From positions 2,735,766 through 2,767,765 of the forward strand of contig NZ_CP045650.1 in NCBI RefSeq assembly GCF_009557235.1: 32,000 bases of DNA, written 5' to 3'. This stretch comes from Acinetobacter wanghuae (GTDB lineage: Bacteria > Pseudomonadota > Gammaproteobacteria > Pseudomonadales > Moraxellaceae). Made by a program: the position numbers and the translations under genes. Below the pieces are notes generated by a model. It was not told the DNA's origin. It saw nothing but the letters and a program-made list of their open reading frames with translations, and did no database searches. This document shows positions 12,108-32,000 of this stretch, piece after piece. Position 1 is the first letter of the stretch. Every line of letters starts with the position of its first letter.

Positions 12108-13397
12108 TTATCTTAAAATTTTCTTGGCATTTTCATCCCGAAAAGCTTTTAAAATTTGCTGTCCTGCACGCCCTGTTAGACTTAAGCCCAAACGACTTTG
12201 CTCTTGACGAATAGCTTGACGAGATTTATCACCAATCAGACCATCGACCTCACCAATATCATAGCCGCGGTTTAATAAAAACTGTTGAATTTCACGACGC
12301 TCTGCACGCGAAGTACCGGCATCAGCTGTTGGCCAAGTTTGTTTGAAGCCACCCTGTCCTTGTAAACGATCGGATAAATGTGCAATCGCTAAAGCATAAC
12401 TTTCAGCAGCGTTATAACTATAAATCGCATCGAAGTTTTTAAACACGAGGAAGACAGGACCGCTTGCACCGGCAGGTGCCATAAGTCCCGCTTGTGAATA
12501 TTCAGACAAACTACCTTGAATAAGTGGCGAACCATCAGCCCGCACCACTCCACGACTCATCCAAGTATTTAAAGCCTTTTTATTTTTACGACTTTCTCCT
12601 GAAATTGACATATTTTCAGGAATTTTGACTTCAAATCCCCATGGCTGACCATTTTGCCAACCGCGCTTATTCAAAAAATTGGCGGTCGAAGCCAATGCAT
12701 CTGGAATACTGCTCACTAAATCACGTCGACCGTCACCATCAAAGTCAACTGCGAGCTCATCATAAGTCGAAGGCATAAACTGCGTATGACCGAAAGCGCC
12801 TGCCCATGAACCTTTTAATTGATCTTCACTGACATCGCCACGTTGTAATAATTTTAACGTCGTGAAAAATTCACCACCGAAATAGCCTTGTCGACGCCCT
12901 TCACAACTCAACGTCCCGAGTGACTGCAATAAAGGATATTTTCCTGCGATATCTCCAAAATTACTTTCTACTCCCCAAACTGCAACGACTGTTTCTGCAG
13001 GTACGCCATAACGCGCTGCAACACGATCTAAGACGCTTCGATGCTGTTGTAATTTTTGGCGCCCCAATTGCACACGCTCTTCGTCAACGAGACCAGATAA
13101 ATAGTCCCAAATAGGTGTCGAAAACTCAGGTTGATAGTTGAGTTTCTCTATAACTGAATAATCAGGCGTTAAATTTTGCGTATAACGATCATACGTTGCA
13201 GCACTCACACCTTTCGAGATGGCTTGAGATTTTAAGTTCGCCAAGCAATTTTGAAACGTATTAGAAGTTGGTGAATAAGAGACACCACGAGTTGATAAGT
13301 CAGCAGGTGCTACTCGCTGCCCATTCATAATTAATTCAGCATGTGCCTGTGAAGCTGCCAAAACCACACAACCAACAAAAAGTGCAAGCCGTTGCAT
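12108..13397 (-). CDS. Lytic murein transglycosylase (MltB/SltB family 3 catalytic domain plus C-terminal peptidoglycan-binding domain), secreted
   Basis: The ORF is 429 aa. It has a signal peptide MQRLALFVGCVVLAASQAHA, the catalytic-region motif VWGVESNFG and a C-terminal PG_binding_1-like repeat (LLNRGYDIGEVDGLIGDKSRQAIRQEQ). Confidence 0.88.
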   Translation of the reverse strand: MQRLALFVGCVVLAASQAHAELIMNGQRVAPADLSTRGVSYSPTSNTFQNCLANLKSQAISKGVSAATYDRYTQNLTPDYSVIEKLNYQPEFSTPIWDYLSGLVDEERVQLGRQKLQQHRSVLDRVAARYGVPAETVVAVWGVESNFGDIAGKYPLLQSLGTLSCEGRRQGYFGGEFFTTLKLLQRGDVSEDQLKGSWAGAFGHTQFMPSTYDELAVDFDGDGRRDLVSSIPDALASTANFLNKRGWQNGQPWGFEVKIPENMSISGESRKNKKALNTWMSRGVVRADGSPLIQGSLSEYSQAGLMAPAGASGPVFLVFKNFDAIYSYNAAESYALAIAHLSDRLQGQGGFKQTWPTADAGTSRAERREIQQFLLNRGYDIGEVDGLIGDKSRQAIRQEQSRLGLSLTGRAGQQILKAFRDENAKKILR

Positions 13398-13534
13398 AAG
13401 ACCCTTTCATACTTAGATTTCGAATTATAGATTTACCTTAACAGCTCAAATTAAAAATGAAAGCATGCAAACGTAACTTTAAATTCATAATTCCTGTATT
13501 TTTAAATTCATTTTGTTGTTTTGAATTCAAAACC

Positions 13535-13543
13535 TTATCCACA
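13535..13543 (+). promoter_or_regulatory. Perfect consensus DnaA box TTATCCACA outside oriC
   Basis: This is an exact 9/9 match to the consensus DnaA box. It is followed by 6 nt and TTTAAATTTAAA, the same arrangement as at 31965-31991. Confidence 0.6.
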
Positions 13544-13682
13544 GTATTTTTTAAATTTAAAAACCGCGATATCTTTTGAATTTAAAATTAAAAATTGGCG
13601 CTAATAGTTATGAATTCAAAATACTACCTGTGAGTAACTTTGATACTATTTTTTTAATTGGATATTTATCAAAATCTTAAGC

Positions 13683-13691
13683 TGTGTATAA
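13683..13691 (-). promoter_or_regulatory. DnaA box-like site TTATACACA (E. coli R2-type, 8/9)
   Basis: The plus strand reads TGTGTATAA, located in the spacer between the two repeat clusters. Confidence 0.4.
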
Positions 13692-14000
13692 AAAATAAAG
13701 CGCGATCCAATTATTTTAAATTTAAAACTTTGAATTCATAGTAGTGATTTGAATTTAAATTCATAACTTGCATGTCTCAGACTTTAAATTCAAAACGTAT
13801 TTTTTAAATTTATTATTTTGAATTCAAAACCGTCACATTCTTTTAAATTCAAAGTATTTCTCTTGGAACAAAAAAGGTCTGACTGGGCATTTTTTATTTA
13901 TTATTGATTGTATATTTTTTAGACTATTGAAATATATCGTGATCCGATAAATGGATGTCATATTTTCAAGAGGCGCAATCATGCCTGAATCAAAGCAAAT

Positions 14001-14033
14001 AAAAAAGCGACCACTGGAGTGATCGCTTTTTTT
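14001..14033 (-). terminator. Rho-independent terminator of purEK
   Basis: The minus strand reads GCGATCAC-TCCA-GTGGTCGC (one mismatch) followed by a T run, about 20 nt after the purK stop. Confidence 0.7.
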
Positions 14034-14049: not shown

Positions 14050-15171
14050 TTAGATGCTCATATCTTCGCTCAATGCCAATGGATTCGGTAAAATTTTCGC
14101 CAATTGACGACATAAAGTGGTGAGTTCTGCACTGTCATTCGGCATTAAAGTGATATGACCAATTTTACGACCTTCACGCTCTGACTTATTATAAAGATGC
14201 AGATGTGCGCCTTCTAAAGCCAATACATCTTCAGTCTTTGGATGCTGACCAATAATATTCACCAGAACCGTTGGACGAATGATGTCAGTCGAACCTAGGG
14301 GTAAACCTGCAACGGCACGAATATGATTTTCAAACTGCGAGCATACTGCGCCTTCAATCGACCAATGTCCTGAGTTATGTACGCGTGGCGCCATCTCATT
14401 GGCATATAAGCCTTTGTCTGTCACAAACAGCTCAAGCGTTAACACACCGACATAGTTCAAATGATTGAGCAGGCGAGTGATGTAATCTTGCGCCACAGGC
14501 TGTAAATCTGCACTGTTCGGTGCAGGTACAATCGAGTGCGACAAGATGCCATTATGATGATGGTTTTCAGCCAATGGCCAAGTTTTCACATCACCATTTT
14601 GACCACGCACCGCAATAATCGACACTTCACGCGAGAAAGTCACAAAACTTTCTGCAATCAGTTCACCGGCAGGACCAAGTTCCGCCCATGCTTGCCCAAT
14701 TTGATCGGCTGTACGCAGTACAAACTGACCTTTACCATCGTAACCACCACGTGAGGTTTTTAACACGATCGGTAGACCGAGTTCAGCGACGACGCTTTGT
14801 AAGCTTTCAATTGAAGTCACGGCTTTATACGGCGCAACTGGAATATCAAGTTCATCAAATAAGGCTTTTTCAGACAAGCGATGTTGGGCAATCGCGAGTG
14901 CCTGACGTGGTGGATGCAGGTCTTTGTTTTTGGTTAATACATCAACATCAGCAAGTGGGGTATTTTCAAACTCAAGTGAAAATACTTCTGCGCTATTGAT
15001 AAAATCTTGCAGACCATTTTCAGCTTTGGTCGAAATGACTTGACCTAAGGCAGCTGAAGGGCAGTCAGTACTTGCTTCAAAAAAGGTACATTGAATGTTT
15101 AAAGGCAATGCAGCTTGCGCCATCATACGACCAAGCTGACCACCACCAAAAATACCAATGGTTTTATCCAT
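14050..15171 (-). CDS. purK: N5-carboxyaminoimidazole ribonucleotide synthase
   Basis: The ORF is 373 aa. It has the ATP-grasp N-terminus IGIFGGGQLGRMM, a PurK-like length and sits immediately downstream of purE. Confidence 0.92.
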   Translation of the reverse strand: MDKTIGIFGGGQLGRMMAQAALPLNIQCTFFEASTDCPSAALGQVISTKAENGLQDFINSAEVFSLEFENTPLADVDVLTKNKDLHPPRQALAIAQHRLSEKALFDELDIPVAPYKAVTSIESLQSVVAELGLPIVLKTSRGGYDGKGQFVLRTADQIGQAWAELGPAGELIAESFVTFSREVSIIAVRGQNGDVKTWPLAENHHHNGILSHSIVPAPNSADLQPVAQDYITRLLNHLNYVGVLTLELFVTDKGLYANEMAPRVHNSGHWSIEGAVCSQFENHIRAVAGLPLGSTDIIRPTVLVNIIGQHPKTEDVLALEGAHLHLYNKSEREGRKIGHITLMPNDSAELTTLCRQLAKILPNPLALSEDMSI

Positions 15172-20662: not shown

Positions 20663-20755
20663 GTGAGTATGTATCAGACCATACTCAAAGAATTAGACCT
20701 ACTCATAAAAACTTTAAAAATATAAGGGCATTAAAACTTCACGTTAGTCTTTGAT

Positions 20756-20795
20756 AGATATTAAGTTTGACTTTGGCCTTTCAAACTTAATATCT
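20756..20795. repeat. Perfect 15-bp inverted repeat with 10-nt loop
   Basis: AGATATTAAGTTTGA (20756-20770), loop ctttggcctt, TCAAACTTAATATCT (20781-20795). It lies about 95 nt downstream of sotB and has no T tract. Confidence 0.85.
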
Positions 20796-21124
20796 CTTGG
20801 CCTAGCTGAACAGTTCATATTATAGAGCAATAAATAGCCATATTTTATGTGAAATTGATTACTTTAAAACCAAAAACATTAGTTACAAAAATAATACTAT
20901 AAGATACAATTAATAACATAATAGTATTTTGAGTTTTTTGAATGGACTTTACAATTATTTTAATATGCATTTTACTCATTATTAGTGTCCTTCTCATTGT
21001 TTCTCTAATGAAGGATAGATTTAATGACCCGTTTAGAAAAAGCAATCGGTGATTGAATTTTCTTCAATTCTATGCGACTCTTAGCATCGAATTTTGGATT
21101 TAATCCAAATCAAATGAATTTGAA

Positions 21125-21264
21125 CAAGGGGAGTAGCCTCCTCCAAACGTTTAAGAACATTGTTCTAAACGTGTCAGAATATCGTCATTACACTTCTTTT
21201 GAAGTCGGTATCTGAGCATTTGCAGTGTTATCACATATAACTGACAAATGTAGGCAAGACCTTG
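21125..21264 (+). promoter_or_regulatory. yybP-ykoY (Mn2+) riboswitch aptamer
   Basis: The conserved 5' element is CAAGG-GGGAGUAG... (21125-21136). The conserved 3' elements are CUGACAAAUGU and AGGCAAGACC-CUUG (21241-21264). P1 would be CAAGG/CCTTG, with internal stem-loops between. It sits directly upstream of a TerC/Alx-family gene, the classic genomic context for this riboswitch class. Confidence 0.75.
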
Positions 21265-21315
21265 ATCATGTTGTTATAGATGTTTTTTCATCTAGCAACT
21301 GGTCGAGGTTTTTTT
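21260..21315 (+). terminator. Riboswitch expression-platform terminator
   Basis: CCUUGAUCA (21260-21268) can pair with UGGUCGAGG (21300-21308; 9 bp including 2 G-U). It is followed by UUUUUUU (21309-21315). The 5' arm shares CCUUG with the aptamer P1 3' strand. Confidence 0.55.
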
Positions 21316-21345
21316 ATGGCCAATTGTTAGATGTGGAGGATTCAC

Positions 21346-31543: not shown

Positions 31544-32000
31544 TGCAAATCAGATTTTCTTTTTTAGATAGGACTGATATTCAATAAATATGATGAACTT
31601 TTCTAGAAAGGTTTTAAATGTCATAAATGGAATTAATCACAAATTAAGTATTTGTTTTAAATAAATTAAATAATTACCAACATGTATATCAACAGAGTTA
31701 TCCACATAGTTATTATTAGTTCATCTCTGAAACCCTAGATTTAAATTTAAAACACTGCAAATTATCCACAGAAATCTCTTTTGTTATTATTAAATTCAAA
31801 TTTATAAATTTAAGTATATTACTATTAGGGCGGCTTTTTTCTGTGGAGATGTACATTTTAATATTTTAAATTAATATTTTACACTGTGGATAACATTGTT
31901 TTTAATATTCTTATACTTTGTGGATAACTTTATGATATATTTTATCCACAGCATGCGGATAAACTTATCCACATGTGATTTTAAATTTAAATTTATTCAC
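31544..32000. other. Chromosomal replication origin region (oriC / dnaA upstream region), truncated by the window end
   Basis: Perfect DnaA boxes TTATCCACA lie at 31698-31706, 31762-31770, 31942-31950 and 31965-31973 (+). Perfect boxes TGTGGATAA lie at 31885-31893 and 31919-31927 (-). There is an 8/9 box TGCGGATAA at 31954-31962 and a very AT-rich stretch at 31786-31882. The position next to rpmH is canonical for Pseudomonas/Acinetobacter-type origins. Confidence 0.85.

Follow-up and report, generated by a model that had tools for sequence, protein, structure and literature searches.

Control of replication initiation from outside oriC, by datA, DARS or SeqA sequestration, is understood almost only in Escherichia coli and its relatives. 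In E. coli, Dam GATC sites are clustered at oriC and in the dnaA promoter, where they are read by SeqA (sequestration). The datA locus is a non-coding, origin-proximal cluster of DnaA boxes, which is duplicated early in the cycle and adjoins amiB, the gene of a cell-wall hydrolase. It requires an IHF site between its boxes and promotes the hydrolysis of DnaA-ATP, and its deletion leads to over-initiation. The core of DARS consists of three closely packed boxes, and DARS1 lies in the promoter region of uvrB. Intergenic clusters of DnaA boxes are also found in B. subtilis: these are mostly origin-proximal, bind DnaA and regulate their neighbours, with more numerous, degenerate boxes and no methylation sites. 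In Caulobacter, the cell-cycle promoters that depend on CcrM, DnaA and GcrA carry both methylation sites and DnaA boxes; the CcrM sites are short, with a few in each promoter. To our knowledge, Acinetobacter lacks SeqA. Dam is absent from the genus as well (PMC10287943).

A different orphan N6-adenine methyltransferase, AamA, is found in A. baumannii ATCC 17978, where its target is the palindrome TTTRAATTYAAA, as shown by SMRT sequencing of the wild type and the mutant (Yang 2023, PMC10483419). The A. baumannii chromosome contains only 66 strand-copies of the motif subtypes, in 12 regions (PMC10483419). Region 1 has 29 methylated adenines over 612 bp beside a lytic transglycosylase gene named 'mltA', and Region 2 has 9 at rnpA/dnaA; these two regions are the densest, and their IPD ratios (the SMRT methylation signal) were the highest in both runs (PMC10483419). 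The aamA mutant grows slowly, shows surface holes and can filament, and has dnaA, rnpA and 'mltA' up 1.5-2.4-fold (PMC10483419). In an independent study of methylomes, this motif was seen to be partly methylated in every A. baumannii strain tested (PMC10287943). The repeat family, its methylation and the Region 1 and Region 2 loci are therefore known. In the literature that we searched, we found no account of conserved DnaA boxes inside the Region 1 array, nor of the conservation of the array across the genus or of the recurrence of the same arrangement of motifs (hereafter grammar) at other loci. Here we describe these features, starting from an array in a relative of A. lwoffii.

Sequences compared

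The window is the whole 32-kb stretch of DNA that was analysed. We identified oriC at its right end by the rpmH-rnpA-yidD-yidC-mnmE genes and six perfect DnaA boxes; the array lies about 18 kb away, between mltB and purK. Annotation of the 32-kb window revealed no methyltransferase gene. We sampled 80 loci around guaD from Acinetobacter, together with the gap of A. baumannii and those of three close relatives. From these we obtained a comparison set of 22 complete mltB-purK gaps of 584-755 bp, in which MltB is 68-83% identical to that of the window. The only near-identical relative found (MltB 97% identical) is represented by a 2.3-kb contig that covers no more than 88 bp of the gap. The A. 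baumannii reference was NZ_CP077849.1, a chromosome mislabelled as a plasmid in PLSDB. The 12-mer was generalised to the palindrome TTTRAATTYAAA, and its oriented variants, TTTRAATTCAT / ATGAATTYAAA, were counted separately. To look beyond the array, a metagenome collection was scanned for a box followed by two 12-mers, which yielded 80 loci; since the scan selects for the combination of box and 12-mer, it shows recurrence and not frequency. The unselected control was a stretch of 400 kb of A. baumannii left of the array.

Motifs of the array and of oriC

The palindrome TTTRAATTYAAA has 10 exact matches in the window against 0.06 expected, eight at 13520-13853 and two in oriC, and no exact match elsewhere in the window. 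An initial sequence-only reading had proposed that the 12-mer family is specific to oriC and to this locus, and within the window the location of all 10 matches bears this out. When variants are counted, the mltB-purK gap contains 14 sites (8 exact and 6 variants) arranged in two clusters (Table 1). One of the variants, TATGAATTCAAA, corresponds to 'Motif II' of Yang 2023, a methylated sequence in A. baumannii (PMC10483419). The repeats are 12 nt long and irregularly spaced by 6-37 nt, and the array extends over about 400 bp. The gap has a GC content of 26%, and the two clusters 20-21%.

Table 1. Features of the array and of oriC in the window, and positions of the array boxes across Acinetobacter.
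Feature	Position	Strand	Remarks
Lytic murein transglycosylase gene (mltB), MltB_2 family	12108-13397	-	TIGR02283, 3e-109; directly downstream of the array
Intergenic gap, mltB start codon to purK stop codon	13398-14049	.	Contains the entire array; from ORFs and family matches
Predicted extended -10 element of the mltB promoter, TGTTAAGGT	13435-13443	-	TGnTAnGGT conserved in a 21-species alignment
Repeat cluster 1, six sites	13478-13620	.	
Cluster 1 variant TTTAAATTCATA	13478-13489		
Cluster 1 variant TTTAAATTCATT	13501-13512		
Cluster 1 exact 12-mers	13520-13531, 13550-13561, 13575-13586		
DnaA box 1, perfect TTATCCACA	13535-13543	+	12-mers 3 nt upstream (13520) and 6 nt downstream (13550)
Cluster 1 reverse variant TATGAATTCAAA	13609-13620		
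Decayed box 2 orthologue TGTGAGTAA	13629-13637	-	2 mismatches from TGTGGATAA
One-mismatch DnaA-box-like site TTATACACA (window letters TGTGTATAA)	13683-13691	-	Spacer between the clusters
Repeat cluster 2, eight sites	13715-13853	.	
Cluster 2 exact 12-mers	Starts 13715, 13748, 13783, 13817, 13842		
Cluster 2 variants	13729-13740, 13754-13765, 13803-13814		
Two-way terminator hairpin, purK 3' end	14001-14032	.	
purK gene	14050-15171	-	Stop codon borders the gap
oriC DnaA-box cluster	31698-31973	.	Layout common to the genus
oriC perfect boxes	31698, 31762, 31942, 31965	+	
oriC perfect boxes	31885, 31919	-	
oriC 12-mer between the first two boxes, left of the AT-rich core	31740-31751	.	Position conserved in other species
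AT-rich oriC core, GC about 16%	31783-31832	.	12-mer-like units 14 nt apart
ATTAAATTCAAA in oriC	31789-31800		
TTATCCGCA in oriC	31954	-	
oriC 12-mer beyond the last forward box (31965-31973)	31980-31991	.	Spacing 6 nt in 11/13 species, 5 nt in one
Box 1 across the genus	134-143 nt from mltB ATG		Recognisable in 20/22: perfect 13, one mismatch 3, two mismatches 4
Box 2 across the genus	216-244 nt from mltB ATG		Orientation differs between clades
Box 3 across the genus	400-530 nt from mltB ATG		In nine species

We compared the array with the methylated regions of A. baumannii. The 12-mers in the mltB-purK gap of NZ_CP077849.1 are spaced by 105, 25, 37, 25, 20, 140, 25, 37, 36 and 36 nt, and those of its oriC by 122, 123 and 128 nt. 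Both series are identical to those of Regions 1 and 2 in the published Table S1 (PMC10483419). A tblastn search of A. baumannii retrieved mltB (75% identity) and purK (85%), with dnaA 20.3 kb away. Given the matching spacings and the flanking mltB, purK and dnaA, the array of the window is the orthologue of Region 1, and oriC that of Region 2. The array sites fit TTTRAATTYAAA or Motif A (TNTNAATTNAAA) and lie in the expected place, so that motif and position both place the array in the AamA Region 1 class.

In all species compared, oriC has one 12-mer between its first two boxes and another past the last forward box. Its core, ttataaataaattcaaatttataaatttaaatttatta, is a pair of 12-mer-like units 14 nt apart, a spacing that is also common in the array. 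This agrees with the earlier suggestion that the 12-mer is an origin-associated element. The AT-rich core is likely the unwinding element, and it recalls the 13-mers of E. coli oriC, each of which starts with a Dam site. The dnaA promoter appears, from its sequence, to be ATGACA-N17-TAGAAT with a DnaA box within the spacer, and in some species there is a 12-mer 19 nt upstream of the dnaA ATG.

The window contains 7 perfect DnaA boxes, six in oriC and box 1 of the array. The sequence-only reading had placed correctly this forward box (13535-13543) and the TTTAAATTTAAA that follows it after 6 nt (13550-13561), as well as the oriC box at 31965-31973 with the identical 12-mer after 6 nt, the 12-mer 10 nt ahead of the 31762 box, ATTAAATTCAAA in oriC and TGTGTATAA between the clusters. 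One perfect box in 31 kb is unsurprising by itself (we estimate that about 0.4 are expected). Box 1 is beyond chance because it is kept at the orthologous position in most other Acinetobacter species. The site at 13683-13691, which had been taken for a second DnaA site, fared differently. The window has 19 one-mismatch matches to the DnaA box against 9.4 expected, and with such a background this site alone lacks significance. It has no counterpart in close relatives and is the sole sequence other than TTATCCACA among the 40 TTATNCACA boxes of the 22 arrays. It is lineage-specific, and may result from chance or from a lineage-specific replacement. The true orthologue of box 2 is TGTGAGTAA at 13629-13637, at the end of cluster 1, where A. 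schindleri, A. variabilis and the loci L047, L048 and L077 have a perfect reverse box and A. lwoffii a box with one mismatch. Hence, the array of the window has one perfect box, one site with one mismatch and one decayed box, compared with two perfect boxes in most other species.

Conservation across Acinetobacter

Every one of the 22 gaps contains 10-18 sites of the 12-mer family. The array lies about 18-20 kb from the origin in all Acinetobacter examined and is 400-550 bp long across species. Perfect TTATCCACA boxes number 39 in the 22 arrays (14.9 kb), i.e. 2.6 per kb, compared with 11 in 1.52 Mb of flanking DNA (0.007 per kb). In the same 1.52 Mb, only three 12-mers lie off the array and oriC, all at locus edges where they are the ends of cut-off arrays. 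A census of all 8- to 10-mers, made with no preset motif, revealed TTATCCACA as the sole 9-mer outside the 12-mer family that is present in at least 21 of the 22 arrays. Perfect boxes are absent from one species (A. faecalis), single in four, double in 16 and triple in one.

The alignment of the 185 nt proximal to mltB shows that the nine columns of the box and the columns of the 12-mers are at least 80% conserved, whereas the intervening spacers are not. Box 1 always lies 2-6 nt past a 12-mer and is missing in A. faecalis and A. baumannii. Boxes 2 and 3 shift place and orientation between clades, yet at least two perfect boxes are found in 17/22 species. Boxes are thus gained and lost while two are kept in most species, which suggests selection for having boxes rather than for one exact site. 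Neighbouring boxes within arrays are 85-360 bp apart.

The sequence-only reading had attached particular weight to box 1 and to the 6 nt that separate it from the next 12-mer. The box stood the comparison, being recognisable in most species. The spacing held in oriC, where it is nearly invariant (Table 1), and in the array it is restricted to the lwoffii clade (the window, A. schindleri, A. lwoffii and A. variabilis; 6-7 nt). Beyond this clade, the gap between array box and 12-mer is 7-9 nt at the second box of another clade and otherwise 14-35 nt. The genus-wide constant of box 1 is on its opposite side, where a 12-mer ends 2-6 nt before the box. When all distinct contexts are pooled, the distances between boxes and 12-mers cluster at 5-7 (mode 6), 18-19 and 28-31 nt on the CACA side and at 3-5, 13-16 and 39-41 nt on the TTAT side. 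These values are suggestive of helical phasing, with an apparent periodicity of 10-12 nt, and should be read as suggestive because related species inflate the counts.

These patterns bear on whether the module is a product of chance, a decaying partial copy of oriC, a cryptic second origin or a plasmid origin. A single perfect box in 31 kb is not unlikely by itself, and the region is AT-rich, as origins are. But the array was kept in 22 species with MltB identities of 68-83% while the spacers between motifs diverged, there is no homology to oriC past the motifs, neither a rep nor a par gene is found beside the array (the neighbours are mltB and purK), and the core repeat is a palindrome, unlike the directional repeats of iterons. 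These four points already largely refute this class of explanations, which we regard as extremely improbable. Two of the hypotheses offered by the sequence-only reading fall with it: coincidence is contradicted by the conservation across the genus, and a duplicated or vestigial origin by the fact that array and oriC share two motifs only, with a longest match of 21 nt.

We also rejected other known types of repeat loci. The palindromic core and the neighbours mltB and purK do not fit an iteron origin or a centromere, and the matches to oriC, at the level of motifs and of at most 21 nt, do not fit an oriC duplication. CRISPR arrays have repeats of 23-47 nt, unique spacers and cas genes, unlike the 12-nt repeats with irregular 6-37 nt spacing found here. 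Over the gap, no Rfam family reached the gathering threshold, and a permissive E-value gave sub-threshold chance matches only; the sole CRISPR match scored 14.9 bits against a threshold of 50. The orthologous A. baumannii array was labelled a mini-CRISPR in a published screen (PMC8891609). Viral contigs with three 12-mers in a row amounted to 17 loci, none with the layout of the array; most were giant-virus bins or contigs of 16-30% GC whose tandem repeats are unrelated. In the plasmid search, all matches were A. baumannii chromosomes entered under a plasmid label.

Other loci with the same grammar and the mltB promoter

The mltB-purK array accounts for 53 of the 80 loci of the metagenome scan, and some of these have four boxes. 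About 21 others correspond to a third locus, outside the window, in the gap past gyrB and a conserved gene of 120-129 aa, before a convergent gene for an ABC-F ATPase. Its distance from oriC, on the dnaA side, is 7 kb, and within about 200 bp it has 2-3 perfect boxes, among them a divergent pair 16-45 nt apart, and 2-4 12-mers. A. johnsonii, A. pragensis and strain YH12138 have this locus; A. equi and A. baumannii do not. A fourth context is common to six loci, and in the annotated one (L125) it is a convergent gap beside serC. The 400-kb control contains 8 exact 12-mers at 5 loci and 4 perfect boxes, with no pair of 12-mer and box within 4 kb. Its site in the trmD operon has a one-mismatch box, TTATCCGCA, 2 nt away, the sole such case. 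Region 12 of A. baumannii has 4 sites within a gene and no box, the nearest being 32 kb off. We therefore rejected the idea that clusters of AamA sites are always accompanied by DnaA boxes: the pairing is specific to oriC and to a few loci, mostly near oriC, and is not general for AamA sites.

The predicted -10 element of the mltB promoter lies at the array's mltB-proximal end. Most species have a 12-mer immediately downstream of it, about 19 nt ahead of the mltB ATG; in the window and its clade, a half-site alone is left at this position. The array might then be purely cis-regulatory, with DnaA as an ordinary transcription factor of mltB and methylation by AamA tuning expression, without feedback on replication. 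In E. coli and B. subtilis, many of the DnaA boxes that lie outside oriC belong to promoters, and the distance between box 1 and the mltB ATG is fixed to within 10 nt or so (134-143 nt) in 20/22 species. A 12-mer adjoins the predicted -10 element, and its position is similar at dnaA in some species. Consistently with such a role, 'mltA' is up 1.6-fold in the aamA mutant and this is complemented (PMC10483419). However, 10-18 sites over 400-550 bp far exceed what is found in known methylation-sensitive promoters, and cluster 2 and box 3 are separated from the promoter by 300-500 bp. The array also survives the loss of single elements, as there is no promoter-proximal 12-mer in the window and no box 1 in A. 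baumannii. In addition, the same grammar occurs past gyrB in a convergent gap, a place in which a promoter would serve no annotated gene. The size of the array, its distal boxes, the dispensability of single elements and the convergent third locus all count for a role wider than the control of mltB. We consider purely local control a real possibility, but one against which we lean.

Function of the array

Our analysis of the sequence indicates that the array is probably a site where the timing of replication is read out. Its most likely role is that of a methylation-gated DnaA-binding locus that acts on the mltB promoter, on the supply of DnaA, or on both. DnaA would occupy the boxes of the array, as suggested by the fact that 39 of the 40 boxes match the consensus perfectly, like those of oriC. 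The flanking 12-mers would be fully methylated during most of the cycle and become hemimethylated once the leftward fork from oriC has passed. At usual fork speeds, the distance of 18 kb implies that the fork would arrive tens of seconds after initiation. Hemimethylation might then alter binding beside DnaA through a reader protein, through AamA itself or through the ease of DNA opening, and the locus would in this way report that initiation has just occurred. We know of no SeqA-like reader of the hemimethylated 12-mer. The high IPD ratios of Regions 1 and 2 argue against a protein that stably covers unmethylated sites. The output would be local, on the mltB promoter that forms part of the array's mltB-proximal end, and free DnaA would probably be buffered in addition, as by datA in E. 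coli.

Several observations count for a methylation-gated DnaA locus. These are the enrichment of the 12-mer, the conservation of the boxes, the grammar shared with oriC, the top methylation of Regions 1 and 2, the recurrence at two other loci and the phenotype of the aamA mutant. Others count against it. There is a single perfect box in the window and none in A. faecalis, A. baumannii lacks box 1, and one to three boxes make a small sink for DnaA. Boxes are 85-360 bp apart, in contrast to the DARS cores, and there is no conserved IHF site such as those of datA and DARS2: the E. coli IHF consensus, WATCAANNNNTTR, is found 7 times in the 22 arrays, compared with 3.8 expected, at no conserved position, and a perfect match in the window (13667-13679) is not conserved in other arrays. 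Region 12 is a cluster of AamA sites without a box, and the fixed distance between box 1 and the promoter suits plain promoter control equally well. On balance, we tentatively favour a methylation-gated DnaA locus with some effect beyond mltB, to which we would grant slightly less than an even chance.

The array could also serve as a sink or loading pad for AamA or for another protein that binds the 12-mer, e.g. an organiser of the origin region, with the boxes as secondary passengers. Clustered AamA sites are much better methylated than isolated ones, with IPD ratios of 3.5-6.4 and 1.6-3.3, respectively (PMC10483419). The variant sites of the arrays are oriented (95 forward and 16 reverse) and the spacings from site to site peak at 14, 19-21, 25 and 31 nt. 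Against such a role, the boxes are perfect in 39/40 cases and form the sole other conserved motif. The TetR-type protein EppR, whose gene is divergent from an HlyD-like gene, binds TTTAAATTTAAA-type repeats in vitro and has TTTAAATTTAAA in its operator. But EppR, of the CecR/YbiH type, regulates a neighbouring efflux operon and is patchily distributed, and we rejected it as a general reader of the 12-mer while keeping it as a lead. Taken together, we find it quite improbable that the boxes are mere passengers of such a binding platform.

A broader version of the methylation-gated reading is that Acinetobacter times replication by the AamA-marked 12-mer, with a reader of hemimethylation that gates DnaA at arrays flanking oriC, which would act as replication-timed sinks or inactivators of DnaA. 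The arrays would then be an independently evolved analogue of SeqA sequestration and datA combined, with the gyrB-side locus on the other flank in some lineages. We regard this broader version as rather unlikely. For the largely open question of how bacteria without Dam and SeqA avoid re-initiation, the array provides a defined sequence in a priority pathogen. A. baumannii already has an aamA mutant and a methylome, the two motifs of the array can be mutated independently of each other, and the array is conserved throughout the genus. Even with a purely local role, the array would link cell-wall remodelling (mltB) to the replication cycle via DnaA and DNA methylation, and would explain why an orphan methyltransferase with about 66 strand-copies of its motif has most of them at two places.

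Comparison with known systems

The closest described locus is Region 1 of Yang 2023. Both arrays have the motif TTTRAATTYAAA, lie in the gap between the transglycosylase gene and purK, form two clusters and are 18-20 kb from oriC. The window belongs to another species, related to A. lwoffii, and there has been turnover of individual sites. That study describes, in its text and supplementary files, a methylation hot spot near 'mltA', with no mention of DnaA boxes, of conservation in the genus or of the grammar shared with oriC (PMC10483419).

Among the systems of other bacteria, the clusters of B. subtilis and the promoters of Caulobacter each share part of the layout: intergenic boxes near the origin in one case, methylation sites combined with boxes in the other. 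The array differs from the former by its fewer, consensus boxes and the presence of methylation sites, and from the latter by the length and number of these sites. It shares with DARS1 and DARS2 the presence of DnaA boxes in an intergenic or promoter region outside oriC, but its boxes are too far from each other to form a DARS core, to which the gyrB-side pair is nearer. Like datA, the array is non-coding, near the origin and beside a gene for a cell-wall enzyme, here mltB; unlike datA, it has fewer, wider-spaced boxes and no conserved IHF site. The earlier suggestion of an analogue of datA or DARS is thus upheld in part: the conserved boxes make a role in the regulation of DnaA plausible, whereas the lack of a conserved IHF site and the distance of at least 85 bp between boxes set the array apart from both.

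The likeness to Dam and SeqA is of another kind. The sites of an orphan adenine methyltransferase are dense at oriC and at a second origin-proximal locus, where they are interleaved with DnaA boxes, and the AT-rich repeats of the origin carry the methylation site. This density at oriC and beside DnaA boxes is what characterises systems of the Dam/SeqA type, and the methylation is documented in A. baumannii. There are differences: the motif is a 12-bp palindrome with about 66 strand-copies per chromosome, compared with about 20,000 for the 4-mer of Dam, and the second locus in Acinetobacter is not the dnaA promoter. By analogy, the array would work most like the Dam sites and DnaA boxes of E. 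coli at oriC and the dnaA promoter, with a logic that resembles that of datA.

Orientation and spacing within the mltB-purK arrays

We examined the orientation and spacing of the 12-mers in 22 arrays, comprising the one in the window and its orthologues. The asymmetric variant TTTRAATTCAT has the same orientation in 95 of the 111 cases, even though the full site is a palindrome. Distances between sites peak at 6, 14, 19-21, 25 and 31 nt.

Further DnaA-box and 12-mer clusters

A third cluster, about 7 kb from oriC in the direction of dnaA, falls outside the window. It occupies the gap behind gyrB and a conserved gene of 120-129 aa, ahead of a convergent ABC-F ATPase gene, and holds 2-3 perfect DnaA boxes and 2-4 12-mers; two of the boxes form a divergent pair with 16-45 nt between them. 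A. equi and A. baumannii lack this cluster; it occurs in A. johnsonii, A. pragensis and strain YH12138. The sequence cgTATAATt directly adjoins the forward box in several species, two of which are A. johnsonii and A. pragensis, and this makes an unannotated transcript controlled by DnaA possible. A fourth context combines a pair of perfect DnaA boxes with two 12-mers. In L125, one of the related loci, which comes from an organism of GC 0.42, it is a gap of 720 bp between convergent genes, adjoining serC, with a short ORF downstream of the cluster. Past the window end, related loci carry what appears to be the dnaA promoter, a predicted ATGACA-N17-TAGAAT with a perfect DnaA box within the spacer. 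This layout is kept across the genus, and some species have an extra 12-mer 19 nt ahead of the dnaA ATG.

Coordinates of the features discussed
Feature	Locus	Position
mltB-purK array	window	13478-13853
Conserved block ahead of the purK terminator	window	13940-14033
Non-coding stretch (668 bp)	window	20663-21330
Third cluster	L173	3940-4108
Third cluster	L161	11352-11493
Third cluster	L169	391-537
Third cluster	L186-L187, L189	
Fourth context, boxes and 12-mers	L125	6150-6224
Fourth context, 45-codon ORF	L125	6461-6598
Fourth context	L121, L130, L137, L146, L165	
Predicted dnaA promoter (example)	L001	19540-19600
Single AamA site with variant box	L196 (NZ_CP077849.1)	804491-804516 (numbering of NZ_CP077849.1)
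EppR operator	L104	2501-2557
Inverted repeat of a viral contig	L092	3934-4265

Other non-coding elements

Immediately ahead of the shared purK terminator we observed a conserved block, CCGATAAATGG ... AAGAGGCGCAATCATGCCTGAA. It resembles a Shine-Dalgarno sequence and ATG, and the ORF that follows is very short and varies in length between species (13 codons in the window). A + strand small RNA or leader is one possible interpretation. The block is missing in A. baumannii and matches no Rfam family. The non-coding stretch upstream of a TerC/Alx-family gene (NCBIfam model name 'R_switched_Alx') likewise has no Rfam family at or above threshold. In a viral contig of GC 0.30, which by base composition is unrelated to Acinetobacter, TTTAAATTTAAATTCAAA-type sites are densely arranged in a long inverted repeat that lacks a DnaA box.

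AamA sites elsewhere in A. baumannii

Three 'plasmid' records of PLSDB (NZ_CP077849.1, NZ_CP104448.1 and NZ_CP064203.1) are 3.7-4.1 Mb long, which matches a whole A. baumannii chromosome in size; a further record, CP040042.1, has 539 kb. The loci concerned are L086, L185 and L190-L197 (NZ_CP077849.1). Since the chromosomal genes mltB, purK and dnaA are all on NZ_CP077849.1, this record is a chromosome mislabelled as a plasmid. Upstream of its trmD operon, a single AamA site, probably Region 10 of Yang 2023, is preceded at 2 nt by the one-mismatch DnaA box TTATCCGCA. This variant box is also present in oriC; taken alone, its position beside the trmD-operon site could be due to chance. At the A. 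baumannii eppR promoter, the published operator of EppR, a TetR regulator of the CecR/YbiH type divergent from an HlyD-like gene, consists of abutting AamA-type 12-mers, a composition suggesting that AamA methylation and EppR binding may compete there.
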